Positions 11,667-28,253 of a stretch of 49,461 bases of DNA are shown here, piece after piece (the first letter of the stretch is position 1; each line of letters opens with the position of its first letter). Under the pieces are notes generated by a model that saw only the letters and a list, made by a program, of their open reading frames with translations, was not told the DNA's origin and searched no databases. The stretch comes from a virus (Duplodnaviria; Caudoviricetes): the IMG/VR virus record IMGVR_UViG_3300037760_000064, positions 1 to 49,461 of that record; one strand, given 5' to 3'. The translations under genes and the position numbers were made by a program.

Positions 11667-12427
11667 CAGGCACCGACGGTGGTGCTGAGGGCCTGCATCT
11701 CGGAGTCGGTCACGTCTCGGGCGACGTGTCCGGTTAGTCGCGCGTGGTAGTCGAGGAGGTCGGAGAGGAATCCGACGAGCGCCAACGAGTCGGCGGTGTC
11801 GGCGTTGGCGGCGGCGTAGGCGTAGGCGGCGTAGGCGGCGGCGTTGGCGGCGGCGTAGGCGTAGGCGGCGTTGGCGGCGGCGTAGGCGTAGGCGTAGGCG
11901 GCGTCGGCGTAGGCGGCGTTGGCGGCGGCGTAGGCGTAGGCGGCGTAGGCGGCGGCGTAGGCGTAGGCGTAGGCGGCGTCGGCGTAGGCGGCGTTGGCGG
12001 CGGCGTAGGCGTAGGCGGCGTTGGCGGCGGCGTTGGCGTTCTTTTTGGTGGGCTCGTTCGCCCACATTTCGGCCGCATCAGTCGCAGCCACACAGGCCGC
12101 TCGGTCACCGGCGCGCAACAGATGCTCCACCCGACGGGCCGACCAAACCGCCAACCGCACACACAGAATCCGCCGGTCCAGCTGCGGTCGCATGTCGGCC
12201 GTGCCGAACAAGCGACCAATCAGCGGCACCAGCAGGTGCCGGTCCGCATCCGGCAAGGCGTCGTTGACCGTCCGCGCAGCACGAGCCAGCACCGGGTGTG
12301 TGCACGACGGGCTGTCGCCGAACTCCTCCCCGGCGAGCAGGGACACGTACTCCATCAGGCAGGCACCTTCGGACGGGTCCTCATGCGCGCCAGCGGACAG
12401 GATGGGGAGGAAATCGGGGACAGTCAT
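11666..12427 (-). CDS. Ala/Tyr low-complexity repeat protein with conserved N-terminal domain
   Basis: GAH....GACLMEYVSLLAGE.F.DSPSCTHPVL...VND domain, then a ~80-codon A/Y/N/D repeat tract; GAGAGGA RBS. Confidence 0.8.
   Translation of the reverse strand: MTVPDFLPILSAGAHEDPSEGACLMEYVSLLAGEEFGDSPSCTHPVLARAARTVNDALPDADRHLLVPLIGRLFGTADMRPQLDRRILCVRLAVWSARRVEHLLRAGDRAACVAATDAAEMWANEPTKKNANAAANAAYAYAAANAAYADAAYAYAYAAAYAAYAYAAANAAYADAAYAYAYAAANAAYAYAAANAAAYAAYAYAAANADTADSLALVGFLSDLLDYHARLTGHVARDVTDSEMQALSTTVGA
11801..12040. repeat. Low-complexity coding repeat built from GCC/TAC/AAC/GAC codons
   Basis: Tandem GGCGTA/GGCGTT/GGCGGC units with longer internal duplications. Confidence 0.95.
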
Positions 12428-12507
12428 TGGCGGGGTTCCTCTCGGGTAGGGGGCGGCCGGGGGGTTGACGTCCTTGACGGCGCGACCGCCGGAAGGGTCG
12501 GGGACCG

Positions 12508-12711
12508 TCAGCACGTCGCACCCCCGACCAGCCGGTAGTGCCGCCGCGTCCAGTCCCACGCCGAGGGCCAGTCCGGCTCCGTGTGGGAGGTGTGCCAATG
12601 CCCGCGGGTCGGGTCGAAGTCGTCGATCTCGATGCGCACAGCGCCGTGATCGGCAAAAATGTGGTAATGCGGGAGTGACGCGTGCTGGCTGTAATGGTCG
12701 GTCTGGATCAT
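12508..12711 (-). CDS. Hypothetical protein
   Basis: TAATG coupling to the Tas-like gene. Confidence 0.45.
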   Translation of the reverse strand: MIQTDHYSQHASLPHYHIFADHGAVRIEIDDFDPTRGHWHTSHTEPDWPSAWDWTRRHYRLVGGATC

Positions 12712-13913
12712 TACGACGGCTCCTCGTCATGTTCGGCGGCAGCAGCCCCGGCGCCACGTATGTGGGCGTCGGAAGGGCGTTGGCCGGGGCCGCTGCCTGT
12801 CCGGTGGACGCGCCGGGTCTCACGCCACAGCGCTTTCAGGACTTCCTTTGAGGTGATGCGCAGCGCGTCGGCGTGGCGGTGCCCGTCAGACCACGGCGTG
12901 CCGGGCTGGGCTGGCTTCCCGGATGGGCCGCAGCGCACGCACTCCACGTCGTGCATCCGGCCTTCGGTGGCTGCCTTGCGCTTGTCGTAGATTTCGCGGT
13001 TGCCGGCCTTGAGCATCGACTCGGCGATGTTGTAGGCGCGCATCTTCGCGGCGGTGGACCAGTTGGCCTGCTCGCCTCGTCGGCGCCTCTGTCCCGGCTT
13101 CAGCCCGCAATATCCCCACAGCTCTGACGGGGTTCGGGGTCGGTCGTGCAGGGTGTTCCAGTACGGGTCGCCGATCGCGGCCAGCAGCCGGGCTGCCTGC
13201 TTCTCCCCGACCCCGCGCTGCTCCTTCACCCACGCGCCGAGCGGGTGCTTCCGCATCGCCCGGTTCAGGTTCAGCGTCGCCTGGTGTTCCAGCTTCGCGA
13301 TCCCGTCGACGACACCGGCCAGGCGCGCCACGTCGGGGTGCGACTCGTCCAGCCCGAAGCCGCGCTGCCCGCCGTCCTTGTCCACCCCCGTGCGGGTCAG
13401 CTGACGCAGCCGGTTCTCGTTCGCGATGCGGGTACGTTCCAGGTCGTCGAGGACGTCGGCGAGCAGCGCGAGAGTGGGGTCCGCCAGCGGCTCGGTTATG
13501 GGCACCGTCCAGTCAGTGGCTGGCGGACCCCACGAGGGTGCGACAACGGCGAGATGGGAATGGGCATCGTGTGGTTTTTGGCCGTTGTCGCTGCTTGAGC
13601 CCCCGCCGACGCGGCGAAGATGGGCGTCGAACTCGGGATGGTCGGCGGGGATGTTTGGCGGCACCTGCGTAGCGACCATGGGTTGCGGCCGTGTCGTGGC
13701 GGGTGCCGTGTCTTGCCCCGCACCGACGACTGCTGAATGGGCGTCGTTCGTCATCTGGCCGGTGCGGGAGTTTGGACCTGCCGACGACGGCAGTTGTTCG
13801 GGCGACGCAGCATCGTTGGTCGCCGGCAGGTGGTCCGTACCCGCAGCGACGTAGGCCAGCTGGGTGTCGTGGTCAGCATGGTCGCTGCGGGTAGTCAGTG
13901 TTGGGCGGCTCAT
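12711..13913 (-). CDS. tasA: TasA-like protein: IS110-related coiled-coil + Nop RNA-binding domain, no nuclease domain. The ORF also spans the guide array.
   Basis: LADVLDDLERTRIANENRLRQL coiled coil; HPL..W....GVGEKQAARLLAAIGDP...SELWGYCGL...WS...K...Y.IAE...Y..RK...GHRH..A.R...K..L..LW. No DEDD RuvC, no HNH, no IS110 catalytic SG. TIGR-like units at both ends. The true start is uncertain (13913 or ~13505). Confidence 0.8.
   Translation of the reverse strand: MSRPTLTTRSDHADHDTQLAYVAAGTDHLPATNDAASPEQLPSSAGPNSRTGQMTNDAHSAVVGAGQDTAPATTRPQPMVATQVPPNIPADHPEFDAHLRRVGGGSSSDNGQKPHDAHSHLAVVAPSWGPPATDWTVPITEPLADPTLALLADVLDDLERTRIANENRLRQLTRTGVDKDGGQRGFGLDESHPDVARLAGVVDGIAKLEHQATLNLNRAMRKHPLGAWVKEQRGVGEKQAARLLAAIGDPYWNTLHDRPRTPSELWGYCGLKPGQRRRRGEQANWSTAAKMRAYNIAESMLKAGNREIYDKRKAATEGRMHDVECVRCGPSGKPAQPGTPWSDGHRHADALRITSKEVLKALWRETRRVHRTGSGPGQRPSDAHIRGAGAAAAEHDEEPS
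12738..12797 (-). ncRNA. Single downstream TIGR-like stem-loop guide unit (unit 8)
   Basis: ggcagcggccccgg CCA acgcccttc CG acgc CCA catacgtgg CG ccggggctgctgcc. Confidence 0.85.
13474..13893 (-). ncRNA. Stem-loop TIGR-like array, 7 dual-spacer guide units (period 58-62 nt)
   Basis: Every unit is a unique 10-15 bp stem closing CCA-N9-CG-NNNC-CCA-N9-CG (unit 2 has CCG at the second box). Units at 13838-13893, 13776-13831, 13717-13768, 13659-13708, 13601-13650, 13540-13591, 13474-13533. Confidence 0.88.
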
Positions 13914-14383
13914 GCGGCACGCCCCAAAGCGTCAGCCAGAACATCCTCAGGCAGCGACGCGCACGTCGCCGTGCCCACCAGATGCCCGGCAAGCTTCTCG
14001 AACCGCTCCGCCGTAGCGAGATTCTCGTCCGCGATACGGCGCCGCTCCGCTGCGATGTACAGCAGATCGTCACGGGTGCAGTCACGCAGCAGCTTCCACC
14101 CAGCCGGCGTGAACAGCCGATCCTGAAGATGGCGCCGCCACCCCTCACGGATCGCCGCCACCTTCCACGACGCCGGCGCCTTCGGATGCACCGCCACCGG
14201 CATGTGCGAGCGGCGCGACATCATCACCAGCCGGGCGAACTGCCGCAACACCTGCTGCAACGCGGCCGCGTAGTCATCGACAGTGAGCCGGCGGTACGCC
14301 TCCTCCGCCACCTCAGCCGGGTCGGCGAGGTCGGTCGAGTCCAGCACGTCGGCGATGACCGACCGGAGATTGAACTCGGTCAC
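13910..14383 (-). CDS. Hypothetical protein, candidate Tas partner
   Basis: GAAGGAG RBS, GTG start; its stop overlaps the ATG of the Tas/array ORF (ATGA). WKLLRDCTRDDL...AERRR.ADEN motif. Confidence 0.75.
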   Translation of the reverse strand: MTEFNLRSVIADVLDSTDLADPAEVAEEAYRRLTVDDYAAALQQVLRQFARLVMMSRRSHMPVAVHPKAPASWKVAAIREGWRRHLQDRLFTPAGWKLLRDCTRDDLLYIAAERRRIADENLATAERFEKLAGHLVGTATCASLPEDVLADALGRAA

Positions 14384-16689: not shown

Positions 16690-16839
16690 TGCTGAGCTGA
16701 GCGAGCCGAACACCCCCAATATCCCGGATTTCTGGCGCTGAACGGGGCCCGCGATGCTGAGCGGATTCGCTCAGCATGCAGGTCAACGCCACAATCCGGT
16801 GCTGAGCGGCCACTTAGCACTCAGCTGGCCCGCTCAGCA
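16690..16839. repeat. Cluster of GCTGAGC(G) direct and inverted repeats downstream of traB
   Basis: Copies at ~16691, 16696, 16756 and 16801 (direct) and 16768 and 16831 (inverted), plus degenerate ones. Confidence 0.65.
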
Positions 16840-18896
16840 GAAACCATCGCCTCGAACTCGGTGTCGCGGGCATCCTCGTCACCATCTGCGTCAGTTGCGG
16901 ACACGTGCAACTGGCGCCGGGTCACCCCTTGTCCTGATGCCACCTCTCGTGGCTTGGCCGGATCCCAGACGACTCGCGGCTCGATGCCGATCTCGCGCAG
17001 CATCGCCCCCACCGACCGGGCGTTCAGCGCGCCGTAGGTTTGCTGACGCAGCGCGGCAAGTCCGTCAGCGAGGTCGGCTAGGTGGATAGCGTCGGCGTTG
17101 CCGATGACCTGACGACAGTCGGCCAGGAAGTCGACCTGTTGCAGCGTGTCGGTGATGTCCTCCCCGGCTGCGTAGCCCGTCAGCCGACCCTGCGCCTCAC
17201 GCACGGCGCGGGCACGTAGCGCGATCTTCTCCGACCGCACGCCATCGAGGCCGTAGACGGAACGCACAATTTGGGCCTCGGCGCCCTCCGCGCGTAGGTA
17301 GCCGAGCCCCTTGTCCTCATAGGCGAAGACGGTGGCGTCTATCCCCGAGTTGTACGCTCCGGTACCAAGGATGGAATCATTGGCCCCCCATCCCATGACC
17401 TTGAGGCAGAAACGGACCACGGCGTTCGCGGAGATAGCCGTCGGGATGCTGTTGGCGTCGGGCTTCTGGGTGCCGAAATAGGAGTGAATACCGACCGCCG
17501 GGCCACGTTTTACCAGGTCAGTGCAGATGTAGATGAACTCGTCACGGATCGTCTTACTGGAATGCTCCATCCAAACTTGCACCTCATCTGTCAATAGCAA
17601 TATGGGTCCAAGATTCAGTTGTCGCATATTCGCGATCTGATCATTGACCTTATTCTCCGGACATAGCGCACGATTCTCCTCAGCTATTTTCCGGATTACT
17701 TTGATACGGCGCCGCATCTCTTTGTGTAGGTCACGCATCTGGGCGAGCTGAGTTTCGATGTCCTCCGGCTCGTCACCGACGCCGTAGCCGTGCGCCACCA
17801 GCGACAGCGGCCCGAAGTCGCCGGTTCCCTTGAGGTCGTAAGCGTAGATGATCGTGCGCGGGTCCAGGGCGAATACCAGCCCGAGCTGCCGCATCACGAA
17901 TGTCTTGCCAGTCCTCGGAAGACCTCCGATCACCCCGGACGTATAGGCCAGAGTGAGCGCTACCCAGTGGCCGCGCTGGTCGGTGAACATCGGCACCGCG
18001 TCGAACACGTTGACCTGTCCCTTGCTCATGAGCGGCCAGGGCCGCTGCCGAGCGGTCGATACCGGCTCGTCAGCGACATACAGCTCCAAGTGCGCCTCAT
18101 GGCGCTTACCACGGGTGGGCCACACGGTGCCGAGCTCGCGGCGCAGCGCCGCGGACAACTGCGGCCGCTTCTCAATGACCTTGCCAGCTGTGACACCGGC
18201 CGGCAGTTCTAGTCCGACTTGGTACCCGCCAGTGGTGCGGGCGACGTCGTGCAGCAGACCGATCGACTCAGCATCTTTCATCCCGGCGATACCGAGAGTG
18301 CACAGCGCCTCGCGCACCATGGGCGCCGATACCGGCGGCGGCGCCCCATCGACCAGCGGTACCGCGTTCAGCAGCCGCTTGTCACGCGGCCGGCCGGCCC
18401 AGCCGAGTACCAGCAGTACCAGCACCGACACCGCCCAGAACAGCGCCGGCGATACCAAGAGCCAAACGATTGCGATACCGATACCGATCATGGCAATGAT
18501 GGCCCCAAAGGCGATCTGCCGGTTGCGGATCCGGTCCTTGCGGGCCTGTTCCAGTCGCAGCCACACCTCGGTCTCGCGCTGCCCGGCGTGGTGGCGTTGC
18601 AGCCCGCGGGTCTCCTCGTCGAGCATGGCCCGCCACAGCCACGCCACCGACCTGCCCACCCCACGTGGGCTCCACTTTAGTAAACGGGCCACATACACGG
18701 GCAGCCACAGCAGATGACGGACCAGAGTGTGCCGCCAGCGGCGGCTGGTCCTGCGGACGGTGGTGCCGAGCTCGCCGCCGCGCATCCAATCAGCCACCAG
18801 CGGTGGGTGGCTGGTATCGCTGGTATCGGTAGCGGGCATCGCGGCGGTATCGGTGGTGGTGTGGTTCTGGGCGTGGTCGGTGGTGCTGTTGGTCAC
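16821..18896 (-). CDS. traB: TraB-like FtsK/SpoIIIE conjugative DNA translocase
   Basis: Two N-terminal TM helices; Walker A GGLPRTGKT; YDLKGTGD; Walker B LLLTDEVQ; RGPAVGI...TQKP; C-terminal winged-helix-like region. GTG start coupled to the upstream stop. Confidence 0.88.
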   Translation of the reverse strand: MTNSTTDHAQNHTTTDTAAMPATDTSDTSHPPLVADWMRGGELGTTVRRTSRRWRHTLVRHLLWLPVYVARLLKWSPRGVGRSVAWLWRAMLDEETRGLQRHHAGQRETEVWLRLEQARKDRIRNRQIAFGAIIAMIGIGIAIVWLLVSPALFWAVSVLVLLVLGWAGRPRDKRLLNAVPLVDGAPPPVSAPMVREALCTLGIAGMKDAESIGLLHDVARTTGGYQVGLELPAGVTAGKVIEKRPQLSAALRRELGTVWPTRGKRHEAHLELYVADEPVSTARQRPWPLMSKGQVNVFDAVPMFTDQRGHWVALTLAYTSGVIGGLPRTGKTFVMRQLGLVFALDPRTIIYAYDLKGTGDFGPLSLVAHGYGVGDEPEDIETQLAQMRDLHKEMRRRIKVIRKIAEENRALCPENKVNDQIANMRQLNLGPILLLTDEVQVWMEHSSKTIRDEFIYICTDLVKRGPAVGIHSYFGTQKPDANSIPTAISANAVVRFCLKVMGWGANDSILGTGAYNSGIDATVFAYEDKGLGYLRAEGAEAQIVRSVYGLDGVRSEKIALRARAVREAQGRLTGYAAGEDITDTLQQVDFLADCRQVIGNADAIHLADLADGLAALRQQTYGALNARSVGAMLREIGIEPRVVWDPAKPREVASGQGVTRRQLHVSATDADGDEDARDTEFEAMVSAERAS

Positions 18897-19645
18897 GCCG
18901 CCGACTCCTGGGCCGATCGCGAGCCGTTGGCGGACGGCTGGTAGTGCCCGTTGAGTACCAACCTCCGCAGCTGTATCGCCGTGCTCTTCGAGACGCTCAA
19001 GGCGGATACCAGTCGAGTCGACGACATGTCTTGCAGACCGCGCTCGTAGACGGTCCCCAGCAGGGCGAGGACGTGGGGGCTCGGGGGCCGGCTCGCCGAT
19101 GCGGCAGCGGTCGCAACGCCTACCGGTACCGGCGGTGGTGGCGGGGCGGAGATGGCCGGCGAGTCCGCAGAGGAGCATGGCTGGGAACCTGCCGCGTGGC
19201 GGTCGCTGGTACTGCTCCATGGCGCATCCCTGGTGATGATGTGGACGACGAGGCCGACTGTGATCGCCGGTACCGACCCGACCGCGGTCACCACGACCCA
19301 GCCCGGCACCAACAGCCCGGTACTGATCAGGTGCGATACCGCGTTCCCCGCCACCGACGCGGCGATGGCACCCACCGATACCGACGCGGCGGTGCGGGAC
19401 CGTGACCTGCGGTACTCAGTGAGAGCAGCGGCGGCCAGGGCGTCGATGGACAGGGGTAGCAGCGGCGACGTCCACACCGGCCAACCAGCATGTATCGCCA
19501 GGTCGCGGAGGAAGACGAAGCTGGCGAGTACCGCCGCTGTGGCCGATACCGCGATGAGGACTCGACGCCACCAGATGATCACAAGACGGTACTGTACCAG
19601 CAATACCAGTGATACTAGTATCGAAAGGGTTGAGATGAAGAGCAA
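18893..19645 (-). CDS. DUF2637/SpdA-like multi-pass membrane protein with C-terminal HTH (plasmid/AICE spread protein)
   Basis: AAVLASF..LRDLA...GW.....LLPLSID...SVAGN..H...V..VP; Pro-rich linker; STRLVSALSVSKSTA HTH-like end. Confidence 0.75.
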   Translation of the reverse strand: MLFISTLSILVSLVLLVQYRLVIIWWRRVLIAVSATAAVLASFVFLRDLAIHAGWPVWTSPLLPLSIDALAAAALTEYRRSRSRTAASVSVGAIAASVAGNAVSHLISTGLLVPGWVVVTAVGSVPAITVGLVVHIITRDAPWSSTSDRHAAGSQPCSSADSPAISAPPPPPVPVGVATAAASASRPPSPHVLALLGTVYERGLQDMSSTRLVSALSVSKSTAIQLRRLVLNGHYQPSANGSRSAQESAA

Positions 19646-19649
19646 GTAG

Positions 19650-19880
19650 CTAGGAAACTCGGAATGTGCCCCTCACCGGGAACGTCTCGACACGGTGCTC
19701 CTCGCGCAACAACTGGAGCGCCGCGCGAACGGTGTTTCGACCGACGTCATACCCGGCTTCAAGTTCGCCTTCGGATGGCAACTTCTCACCGATCGCGATC
19801 TCGTTCGCATCGAACTTCGCGCGCAGTACCGCAGCGAGCTGCCGATAGAACGGCTCACGGCTCCACTTGTCGATACTCAC
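19650..19880 (-). CDS. GntR-family winged-helix regulator (Kor-like)
   Basis: PFYRQLAAVLR......GEKLPSEGEL...YDVGRNTVRAALQLL..E..V.T...RGTF. Confidence 0.9.
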   Translation of the reverse strand: MSIDKWSREPFYRQLAAVLRAKFDANEIAIGEKLPSEGELEAGYDVGRNTVRAALQLLREEHRVETFPVRGTFRVS

Positions 19881-20151
19881 GCCGATATCATACGGGACCA
19901 CCCGTACCACTAGTACCGATACCGATCTCGACAACATCGGTCAGGCGCTATGTTCCGACATGGGCAGTCTCAGCAACGATGAGCGCCGAGCCGTGGTGGT
20001 TGTCCTTGGAGAGTCGGCGCCGGACGAGTTGCACGCGTTCACGATGGCGCTGGCTATTACGGCTCGACATTGCCCAGAGCACTTCCACCTCTGGGATGAC
20101 GAGGTAGAAGAAATCATGGGCGGAGAGCTTCCCTGGGAACGGGAATCGTAG
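19867..20151 (+). CDS. Hypothetical protein (start probably internal, e.g. ATG 19960)
   Basis: ORF divergent from gntR; C..H motif, acidic C-terminus. Confidence 0.35.
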   Translation: MSILTPISYGTTRTTSTDTDLDNIGQALCSDMGSLSNDERRAVVVVLGESAPDELHAFTMALAITARHCPEHFHLWDDEVEEIMGGELPWERES

Positions 20152-21577: not shown

Positions 21578-21813
21578 ACTGTAGTCTGTACTGTAGCCAA
21601 TATGAGTCTGGACGTGTCCGGACGAGTCTACAGTGAGAAGCCTCTGACCAGCAATGGAACGGGTAACAGCTAAGGTCGAGCCTACCGTACCAGGGGACTC
21701 ATAATCCCTTGGCCGTGGGTTCGAGTCCCACCCACCCCACCATAGCTGACCAGGACCGGAACCTTTCAGGAGGTCTCGGCGAAGCCTCTCTCTGTAGCCA
21801 GGACTGTAGCCAA
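21578..21813. other. attP: tRNA-derived core with flanking arm-type sites
   Basis: Core ~21691-21742 is the 3' half of a tRNA (anticodon loop CTCATAA, GGTTCGAGTCC, ACCA end). (A)CTGTAGCCA-type repeats at 21578, 21590, 21792 and 21803; inverted copy at 21628. Confidence 0.9.
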
Positions 21814-25976: not shown

Positions 25977-27695
25977 ATGACGATGACTGTGTACCGGTAC
26001 GGGCTGCCCTCCTGGGTGGTCCTGCCGCAGGTCGTAGACGAGCAGCTGTGGCTGGCGCACCAGCTGCGTAACCAGCTGGTGCAGCTGGAACACGAGCATG
26101 AGGAGCAGCTGGCCGCACTCATGTCGTCGTACCCTCAGGTCGCGGAGGCGGAGCAAGCCCGGGAAGCGATAGCTGCCCGGACCGCCGAACTGGAAACCAA
26201 GGTGGCCCAGGAGCGGGCGCGGCAACGGACCCGCTCACCGAAACATCCCGCTGTGCGTGAGCTCGCAGAGACTCGAGCACAGCTGAAAGCGGCCCGCGTC
26301 GATGTGCGCGACCGCAAGGCGGCAGTCCGGGACGCCTCCGCCGGGGCCAAGAAGGATCTGCGTGACCAGCTGAAACAGCGCCAGAAAGAGCTGTACGGCG
26401 AATACTGCCAGACACGTGGACTGTACTGGGCCGTCTACAACGATGTCGCAGATCACCATCGCGTCGCGGCGAGACGTGTGGTGGCGAAACGCTCAGCTGG
26501 GCAGCCCGCCCAGCTGCGATATCACCGGTGGGACGGGTCGGGATCGCTAGCCGTACAGCTGCAGCGGGCCCAGACGGACCCGCAGCGCACCCCCGACCGT
26601 ATCGCCGACGGCGAGCACGGCAAGTGGCGCAACGTCCTATCGATCTCGCAGGGCACCCGCCACGGACAGCTGCGTATGCGGGTCGGTGCCGAACATGTCA
26701 CACTGCCGATAATCGTCGACCACGACATGGACGACGACGCGGACATCACAGGCGCACGCCTCACAGTCAGACGAGTCGCCGGGCAGCGGCGCGTACACCT
26801 GACAGTCGCCGCCAAGCTCCCCGACCCGGCACCAGTCACCAGCGGCGCCACCTTGGCTGTGCACTGTGGCTGGAGGCGTGAGGACGACGACTCTATCCGC
26901 GTCGCCACCTGGAGAGCAGGACAACCAGTCACAGTGCCGGTCGACCTCAAAGACATCGTCACCCAGGACACATCCACCAGCGGGATCGTCACGATGCCGG
27001 TGGCGTGGCGGGACCGCATCGCCCACTACACCACCGTGCAAGCCAGCCGTGACACCCGGCTAGAGCAGATACGAGATCGCGTCGTCCAGTGGCTCACGAC
27101 ACACCCACAGGACGACATCGACCCTGCCAGCGTGGCTAAATGGCGCAGCCCAACGCGGCTGGCGAAACTGGCATGGCAGTGGCACCACGACACTCCCGCA
27201 GGTGGGGACCAGATCACACGAGAGCTGATGTCATGGCGCCGCTGGGACCGGGTCAGGTGGGAGCAGGCAGCGCACGGCACCCAGAGGGCGACCGGCCGGC
27301 GTGACGACGCGTGGCGCCGGTTCGCCGCCTGGGTAGCGTCCACAGCAGTCGTGGTGGTGGTGGACGACACAGACCTGGCCGCACTGACCAGACAGATCAC
27401 CCAGGAGCCGACCACGATCCCCACCCAGGTCACACAGATCGCCGCGCGGCAACGCGTCGACGCTGCTCCTGGTGGTCTACGCCAGGCGGTGCGATCTGCC
27501 GCCACCCGTGACGGAGTCACGGTCGTAACGGTCCCGTCGAAAGGCCTATCGGGCGACTGCTATCGCTGCGGGCACAGCGGCAACGACGTCACCGGCCACG
27601 TGATCTACTGCGACAGCTGCGACAAGCCCTACGACCGTGACGCATCCGCGACACTACACATGATCCGACGTGCGAGCGGTCACTTGACCACTTGA
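25977..27695 (+). CDS. cas12m: Cas12m (type V-M, formerly V-U1) CRISPR effector with non-canonical RuvC
   Basis: 572 aa. QLWLAHQLR, LYGEYC...LYWA.YN.V..HH, RWDGSGSLAVQLQR and DADITGA motifs as recalled for Cas12m. RuvC-I LAVHCGWR (H for D), RuvC-II VVDDTD (D for E), AAPGGLR, Zn finger CYRC/CDSC, RuvC-III YDRD. Adjacent CRISPR array. Confidence 0.92.
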   Translation: MTMTVYRYGLPSWVVLPQVVDEQLWLAHQLRNQLVQLEHEHEEQLAALMSSYPQVAEAEQAREAIAARTAELETKVAQERARQRTRSPKHPAVRELAETRAQLKAARVDVRDRKAAVRDASAGAKKDLRDQLKQRQKELYGEYCQTRGLYWAVYNDVADHHRVAARRVVAKRSAGQPAQLRYHRWDGSGSLAVQLQRAQTDPQRTPDRIADGEHGKWRNVLSISQGTRHGQLRMRVGAEHVTLPIIVDHDMDDDADITGARLTVRRVAGQRRVHLTVAAKLPDPAPVTSGATLAVHCGWRREDDDSIRVATWRAGQPVTVPVDLKDIVTQDTSTSGIVTMPVAWRDRIAHYTTVQASRDTRLEQIRDRVVQWLTTHPQDDIDPASVAKWRSPTRLAKLAWQWHHDTPAGGDQITRELMSWRRWDRVRWEQAAHGTQRATGRRDDAWRRFAAWVASTAVVVVVDDTDLAALTRQITQEPTTIPTQVTQIAARQRVDAAPGGLRQAVRSAATRDGVTVVTVPSKGLSGDCYRCGHSGNDVTGHVIYCDSCDKPYDRDASATLHMIRRASGHLTT

Positions 27696-27720
27696 CACCT
27701 AGCGAGCGCTCGCACACACT
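27692..27720 (+). promoter_or_regulatory. Possible CRISPR leader promoter
   Basis: TTGACA (27692-97), 17 bp, CACACT; palindrome GCGAGCGCTCGC in the spacer region. Confidence 0.4.
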
Positions 27721-27849
27721 GCAACCCAGGCCATAGGGCCCACGCACCTTGACATCACCCATCCAGTCTGTCCCGGAACGGACAGACACAACCACCACTC
27801 GCGACAGACCAAAACGTCGCAGGTCAGCACCACCCACAACGACACAGCG

Positions 27850-28253
27850 GTGTCCATGCCAGCGTTGGGGCTTCGTACCAGCGAGACCTCGCCACCGCCT
27901 CGTACAGGCGGTGGAAGATGTGTGTCCATGCCAGCGTTGGGGCTTCGTACCAGCGAGCGTCAAGACTCATGATCTTGTTCCTTTCGTTTAGACCTTGTGT
28001 CCATGCCAGCGTTGGGGCTTCGTACCAGCGAGACATGGACATCGAGAACAGCACCCAGATGAATTGGGTGTCCATGCCAGCGTTGGGGCTTCGTACCAGC
28101 GAGACAGATCGCTTCGACCGCGAGGTCGACCCCGAGTTCAAGGTGTCCATGCCAGCGTTGGGGCTTCGTACCAGCGAGTAGCGTCGTCGGTGCCGTCCCG
28201 CCGCCATGCCTCGGCCGGTGTCCATGCCAGCGTTGGGGCTTCGTACCAGCGAG
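27850..28253 (+). CRISPR. CRISPR mini-array: 6 identical 36-bp repeats, 5 spacers (36, 39, 35, 39, 39 bp)
   Basis: Repeat GTGTCCATGCCAGCGTTGGGGCTTCGTACCAGCGAG at 27850, 27922, 27997, 28068, 28143 and 28218; internal stem CGTTGG/CCAGCG. Confidence 0.99.

Follow-up and report, generated by a model that had tools for sequence, protein, structure and literature searches.

An actinobacterial phage with a nuclease-free TasA and a stem-loop TIGR array whose guides likely read 17-bp sites

A temperate actinobacterial phage, whose whole genome makes up the 49.5-kb window analysed here (49,461 nt, 66% GC), carries a TasA protein that lacks a nuclease and, with it, a TIGR array of the stem-loop type, a known kind of system. 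We consider it probable that the guides of this array read 17-bp sites and block the transcription of rival mobile elements inside the host cell. What is new is probably the corrected 17-bp rule together with a multi-guide match to a rival element, which comes from a relative rather than from this phage itself. An error in the assumed target length is enough to make exact searches fail, and the accessible text of two previous reports states that natural TIGR targets could not be determined (Faure 2025, PMC12045711; Xu 2026, 10.64898/2026.09.09.750476).

Stem-loop units lie within the tasA gene

The array comprises eight units, all on the minus strand, seven of them in tandem with a period of 58–62 nt and the eighth apart from them in the 3′ end of tasA (Table 1). 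Each unit follows the same plan, that is, box C (CCA), 9 nt, a loop of CG, 4 nt and CCA, a further 9 nt and box D (CG), with a stem closing the unit, and boxes and stems are intact in all eight. Two short spacers, box C/D motifs, a stem and a position at tas are the features of stem-loop TIGR–TasA units, and the eight stem-closed units in the nuclease-free tasA frame bear out an earlier note on this DNA, which had recognized a TIGR array with eight spacer pairs. The alternating edge and loop repeats of dual-repeat TIGR arrays, with their 36-nt period, were not found in this locus, the period being longer and the stems variable. A looser genome-wide scan for the core gave 22 matches, among which stems of at least 10 bp occurred in the array units only; hairpin folding of the units scored z of −1.6 to −5.4, and a search of Rfam returned no match. 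Among 153 relatives, 754 of 979 units fall inside the tas stop-to-stop frame, and intragenic stem-loop units have already been described (Xu 2026). Single stem-loop units far from tas also occur in some of the larger phage records (L245–L248, L275–L277 and L287–L289; 23 units in 140 stretches).

Table 1 Features of the TIGR locus and of the CRISPR locus, with positions in the window
Feature	Position	Strand	Remarks
tasA open frame, 400 aa	12711..13913	-	NF052498 TIGR_Tas, 226 bits (cut-off 100)
tigRNA unit 1 core	13850..13881	-	stem to about 13838-13893
tigRNA unit 2 core	13788..13819	-	A9/B9 complementary; second box C is CCG
tigRNA unit 3 core	13727..13758	-	A9/B9 complementary
tigRNA unit 4 core	13668..13699	-	bulged; weakest stem of the set
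tigRNA unit 5 core	13610..13641	-	core motif and stem
tigRNA unit 6 core	13550..13581	-	A9/B9 complementary
tigRNA unit 7 core	13488..13519	-	at start of Nop-protein core
tigRNA unit 8 core	12752..12783	-	within tasA 3′ end; A9/B9 complementary
Cas12m-like protein, 572 aa	25977..27695	+	E 6e-119 to PDB 8pm4; 1e-112 to Cas12m2 8hhl/8hio
CRISPR array, 6 repeats of 36 nt, 5 spacers	27850..28253	+	context, outside the TIGR locus

The ATG of tasA at 13913 overlaps the upstream stop codon and the following ATG in turn overlaps its stop; translation may instead begin at 13505, giving a shorter protein. The protein has the coiled coil and Nop domain that define Tas membership (core at 12795–13475), preceded by a low-complexity N-terminal third that holds units 1–7. 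TasA matched the dual-repeat nuclease TaTasR (9mty) with an E value of 3.6e-10, and a structure model of the core (pLDDT 94.8) retrieved only TasR and TasH proteins among its top ten Foldseek hits (9mty, E 1e-7). A Pfam search of the 400-aa frame found no RuvC or HNH domain, weak PF02371 being the lone match, and the N-terminal third is occupied by the guide array itself. IS110 transposases share a Nop-like C-terminal domain with TasA (PF02371, E 0.039; IS621 structure, E 2e-3), but TasA has no detected DEDD domain and the guide array takes the place of the bridge RNA. Identity as an IS110 transposase was rejected, as NF033542 scored 15 bits against a cut-off of 140 and DEDD_Tnp_IS110 gave no match.

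The closest published systems are the stem-loop TIGR–TasA proteins PlTasA (Faure 2025; Guan 2026, 10.64898/2026.08.11.744272), BlTasA and MbTasA (Xu 2026), which are described as Nop-only proteins with a disordered N terminus, and whose units are likewise hairpins inside coding sequence, the CCA and CG boxes flanking two 9-nt spacers; by eye, PlTasA shares its motifs and unit layout with the phage TasA. Dual-repeat TIGR–TasR/TasH systems (TaTasR 9mty, ParTasR, SpTasH) have the same fold (TMq 0.70–0.73) and tandem-spacer logic; they differ in that their edge and loop repeats are not stems and their proteins carry a RuvC or HNH domain.

Among mycobacteriophages, the annotated ‘transposase’ of 83 records is a TasA homologue of about 55% identity (Bethlehem gp71 and upstream sequence; L023, 3766–4657). 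Bethlehem has three stem-loop units upstream of this homologue, and near-identical phages have 0–3 called units with differing spacers; such phages offer a cultured system for following spacer turnover.

Family spacers point to a 17-bp site

In the published structures, 9 + 9 bp form on designed 18-bp targets (Xu 2026; Guan 2026). The earlier note had likewise predicted 18-bp targets, each composed of spacer A and the reverse complement of spacer B (A + rcB), and all eight of its 18-mers were correctly derived in this way. To examine the register we collected relatives from databases of viruses, genomes and metagenomes and looked for units on the strand that encodes tas. Of 174 loci, 154 had units, 987 in all, which gave 762 distinct spacer pairs and, after near-identical ones were collapsed, 745 pairs; on the strand opposite tas, a gauge of false positives, 11 units were called.

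Mutual information between the ninth bases of the two spacers (A9 and B9) reached 0.223 bits and was the sole outlier of the 9 × 9 table, the next value being 0.026 and the shuffled maximum about 0.024. The two bases were complementary in 357 of the 745 pairs (48%) and identical in 13%, with 214 ± 11 complementary pairs expected from within-locus shuffles (z 13.3); complementarity at spacer positions 1–8 was 22–35%. A codon-phase test, which used positions 1–8 only and asked which spacing places A and rcB in one frame, gave z 6.0 for 17 bp versus −1.2 for 18 bp with null same-strand controls, and z 4.8 and −1.1, respectively, with an independent training set. The 17-bp signal was present in both halves of the data (z 4.0 and 3.1), within loci (5.2) and, at z 1.9, in 32 pairs from genomes, and it amounted to about one third of that of a pure-coding control. 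The test correctly separates real 17-mers from 18-mers and fixes the spacing modulo 3 only; a junction test was not clearly better for 17 bp (z 3.1) than for an in-phase 20-mer control (2.5). Spacer GC peaks at A3, A6, B6 and B3, positions that we infer to share one frame only in a 17-bp site. In complementary units, A9 and B9 each continue their own spacer as natural DNA would (z 3.2 and 3.5), and A9 fits as the central base (z 4.7).

These results suggest that the guides likely read a 17-bp site consisting of A positions 1–8, one shared and loosely read centre, and B positions 1–8 on the other strand. The opposite-strand reading in the order A then rcB, as proposed before, is upheld by the family phase scores (z 4.8–6.0) and by the matches of a relative described below, and many guides read coding DNA, as had been suspected of some of the listed targets. 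Opposite-strand pairing is a family-level result and is weak for the eight units of this phage alone, in which A9 and B9 are complementary in four of eight and the summed phase score favours 17 bp (+1.3) over 18 bp (−1.9).

Guides of a Parafrankia prophage match integrative elements

In Parafrankia soli (genome G001), a prophage carries the array L031, with 10 guides. Three of its four complementary guides were searched in the 56 genomes of the host's family with reversed patterns as the control, resulting in 4 matches versus 1, 5 versus 13 (chance level) and 6 versus 1. The first guide matched exactly in G090 and with one mismatch (position 1) in the host G001, and in both genomes its site lies on the start codon, with the ribosome-binding site, of one shared gene (212 aa). 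All ten guides were then tested against the surrounding elements, mismatches being counted out of 16 in the 17-bp register. Three guides matched the G090 element (21 kb) at 0, 0 and 1 mismatch; the G095 copy (20.8 kb) was matched by three guides at 1 mismatch and by one at 2, and the copy in G001, the prophage host's own genome (24 kb), at 1 and 2 mismatches. Across the three copies, 6 of 10 guides thus matched at no more than 1 mismatch, four of these six not having been used in finding the elements, compared with 0 of 90 wrong pairings in each copy and 1 of 735 foreign guides (in G090). At the six matched sites the centre agreed with both ninth bases in three cases, with B9 only in two and with neither in one, so the centre seems to be read loosely.

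The elements are related to each other, are bounded by att-like direct repeats, and encode an integrase, an excisionase and a replication initiator or DnaB, with FtsK in two of the three copies; one target site lies inside the integrase gene. Neither a comparison of 24 open reading frames with PHROGs nor tblastn with the structural proteins of our phage found a head or tail gene in them, although PHROGs gave one weak small-terminase match, to a 76-aa HTH protein. The elements resemble actinomycete integrative conjugative elements; alternatively, they may be satellites. On the strength of these sequence matches, the L031 guides appear to target rival integrative elements, in what would be the first multi-guide match to such an element. 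Among the papers listed by literature searches, no TIGR paper gave a 17-bp or overlap rule or native targets. This target class rests on one system, since guides of two other systems found nothing: a Streptomyces prophage guide had no exact match in 401 genomes, its own host's included, and a mycobacteriophage guide had no match in IMG/VR.

Covariation extends to dual-repeat arrays

A repeat-motif scan recovered 69 dual-repeat loci, 59 of them with a Tas-like protein, and 372 spacer pairs from 48 loci. Position 9 is nearly fixed as G in both spacers of 13 of these 48 loci (111 pairs), which have in effect 8-nt spacers; these loci (L336, L351, L360, L364, L367, L379, L385 and others) were set aside from the covariation count. 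In the remaining 35 loci, A9 and B9 were complementary in 115 of 261 pairs, where 24% was expected and the within-locus null was 73 (z 6.9); of comparison pairs taken across the edge repeat, 83 of 254 were complementary. Dual-repeat systems therefore show A9/B9 complementarity as well. The codon-phase test on these arrays was not significant (z 1.6). Among units of Table S1 in Faure 2025 inspected by eye, A9 and B9 are complementary in 8 of 8 ParTIGR, 3 of 6 TaTIGR and 2 of 4 legible PlTIGR units.

We regard it as very improbable that the published contiguous 18-bp rule holds and that targets went unfound because the source DNA is absent from databases. TaTasR, CsTasR and PlTasA are reported to form two 9-bp duplexes on 18-bp substrates, and Faure 2025 describes no obvious covariation between A and B, but the covariation and the negative 18-bp phase scores above are at odds with this rule, and in the three element copies the 18-bp register never did better than 3 mismatches, versus 0–1 in the 17-bp register. 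The predicted length of 18 bp is thus probably one base too long, and given the 17-bp register in the family and in the relative, the tenth base of each listed 18-mer should be dropped and the centre allowed to vary.

A 17-bp site might instead be read through 8 + 8 bases, with the ninth bases pairing with each other or with nothing and the central target pair ignored, a possibility that we take seriously and yet find doubtful. The mixed agreement of the centre at the six L031 sites and the nearly fixed G in 13 of 48 dual-repeat loci are in keeping with such a reading, as are the tolerance of TasR for gaps of 1–2 bp reported in Faure 2025 and a TasH structure titled ‘gap dsDNA’ (9vzx). Against it, the fit of the ninth bases to their own genomic context, and of A9 as the centre, indicates that they were at least copied from the target, and ninth-base combinations unable to pair in RNA (A/C and C/A) occur as often as expected.

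Searches for targets of the phage's own guides

The earlier note had spot-checked this genome and seen no full match. The search is now exhaustive: with both orders (A + rcB and rcB + A) at 0–1 mismatch, none of the eight 18-mers matched in the window, and none did in a set of 10.6 Mb, both strands counted, the best sites having 2–3 mismatches. The 17-bp forms of the eight guides are also absent from the window (best 2–3 mismatches of 16), and self-targeting by these guides was set aside. Collection-wide searches covered units 2, 3, 6 and 8, with units 1, 4, 5 and 7 and the 18-mers searched in the 10.6-Mb set. The phage's own targets were not found, the four widely searched guides giving matches at chance level or uncorroborated single ones. 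Unit 3 had 19 IMG/VR matches in assorted phages, none of which was matched by a second guide, and unit 8 had one, in a 52%-GC phage; when the matches of both units were followed into five whole records, no co-match was seen. Unit 2 had 4 matches in 56 genomes versus 19 control matches, the exact one being in a housekeeping gene; unit 6 had 3 in 401 genomes versus 3 for the control, and units 6 and 8 had none in 7 genomes of the family and order of the genome nearest in att sequence (see below).

Exact 8 + 1 + 8 matches of phage guides to other phages were in excess (7 versus 1.3 in 2.2 Mb of flanks, 5 versus 1.75 in a further 2.1 Mb), but with a control geometry of equal codon phase the figures were 8 versus 2.1; these matches were therefore not counted, and phage-against-phage targeting was rejected as their reading. 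With 9 + 9 halves no geometry stood out among phage-versus-phage comparisons, and at 1 mismatch of 16 there were 69 matches versus 55 ± 8. Two single matches were not separated from chance: the guide of one relative has exact matches in the T-arms of phage tRNAs (L145, 1338), and another guide has its match within tas at a locus other than its own (L138, 7401).

The absence of matches in this genome had been taken to point to host or competitor DNA. Competitor mobile elements are indeed what the Parafrankia relative's guides match; for this phage either may hold. That the guides silence host chromosomal genes, so that the phage reprograms its host, seems improbable to us. Silencing of a chromosomal gene by TasA has been achieved in E. 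coli (Xu 2026), the exact 8 + 1 + 8 match of unit 2 lies in an NADH dehydrogenase-like gene of genome G078 (named by eye from the translation), and tRNA T-arms are matched by one relative's guide. However, the unit-2 match is 1 among 4, against the 19 control matches, the guides of the family are almost all unique (745 non-redundant among 762 distinct) and GC-poorer than their loci (57% versus 65%), the Streptomyces prophage guide finds no exact match even in its host, and all six convincingly matched L031 guides fall in a mobile element. Still less probable, and close to the 18-bp rule in this respect, is that the guides regulate genes of the phage itself or of its close kin, or are decayed leftovers. 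Homologous guides do drift by point changes (L028 versus L030; a unit-1 variant in run X3), but no match within 1 of 16 occurs in this genome, family guides have no exact match to their own record in 2.1 Mb (46 virus records) or to their own flanks, and the intact stems and boxes of all eight units speak against decay.

Proposed function of the TasA system

By analogy with its close homologue PlTasA, the array would be processed to single-hairpin tigRNAs bound by a TasA dimer. Family statistics and the matches in one relative suggest that such a complex reads a 17-bp site, and this phage's guides may hit rival integrative elements like those matched in Parafrankia. Published TasA assays lead us to expect repression by a roadblock, without cutting: TasA is reported to repress transcription, with guide-directed DNA binding and repression shown for MbTasA (Xu 2026), and the blocking of mobile elements has been suggested for TasA (Faure 2025). 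Our reading departs from published stem-loop TasA systems in two respects. Their targets are designed 18-bp sites, whereas the family here points to 17 bp with a shared centre; and their natural targets are given as undetermined in the accessible text, whereas here those of one relative lie in an integrative element.

The one-base overlap may, speculatively, be the footprint of both spacers having been copied from one piece of DNA. Gaps between the A and B sites were tested in Faure 2025, and overlaps are not among the tests in its accessible text. A broader proposition, to which we give even chances, is that arrays of both types with 9-nt spacers read 17-bp targets with a shared pair, the overlap recording spacer acquisition, and that actinophage TasA, here beside Cas12m, serves as adaptive weaponry directed at the host's integrative conjugative elements or satellites. 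If this is true, the 18-bp rule by which guides for genome editing are designed differs by one base from the native geometry. The corrected register bears on guide design for TasR and TasA and on the mechanism of spacer acquisition; it led to the six matched guides, and as prophage and targeted element occur together in a cultured strain, Parafrankia soli NRRL B-16219, the function of TasA is directly testable.

Phage genome and its second RNA-guided locus

The phage encodes a capsid protein, a tyrosine integrase, DnaB and RecT/YqaJ, and its terminase is nearest to those of Streptomyces and Arthrobacter phages. It is present in sediment and soil sequencing runs from three studies, with no RNA run listed among those carrying it, and 12300–14300 is carried unchanged on one contig of a run that may be its source. 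An att-like copy of the 3′ half of tRNA-Met(CAT) lies at 21693–21742, and the nearest of 401 genomes differs from it at 1 of 45 bases; this core is matched at 1–3 mismatches by 18 of the 401 genomes and by nothing in IMG/VR. Downstream of tasA, a minus-strand gene contains tandem 9–27-nt repeats that form an Ala/Tyr/Asn-rich coding tract (11790–12040). Beside the integrase, on the minus strand (16821–19937), an FtsK/SpoIIIE gene, a membrane-protein-like gene and a small regulator form a transfer-like module, whose FtsK (16821–19220) is 34% identical to that of the elements targeted in Parafrankia. This module and the Cas12m CRISPR locus would fit a life among competing integrative elements.

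With the Cas12m-like protein and its array (25977–28253) and TasA, the phage carries two predicted RNA-guided DNA binders from families described as non-cutting. Type V-M (Cas12m) and type IV CRISPR systems resemble TasA in their proposed non-cutting, guide-directed DNA binding against mobile elements (PMC11013384 for Cas12m), but use an unrelated protein, one contiguous spacer and a PAM. The CRISPR spacers had no convincing match in phages or plasmids (best E 0.1–5). A possible protospacer of CRISPR spacer 5 is found on short contigs of runs X1 and X2, which differ from the spacer at 4 of 34 nt and have foreign flanks. One X1 contig skips all five CRISPR spacers, by deletion or assembly collapse.
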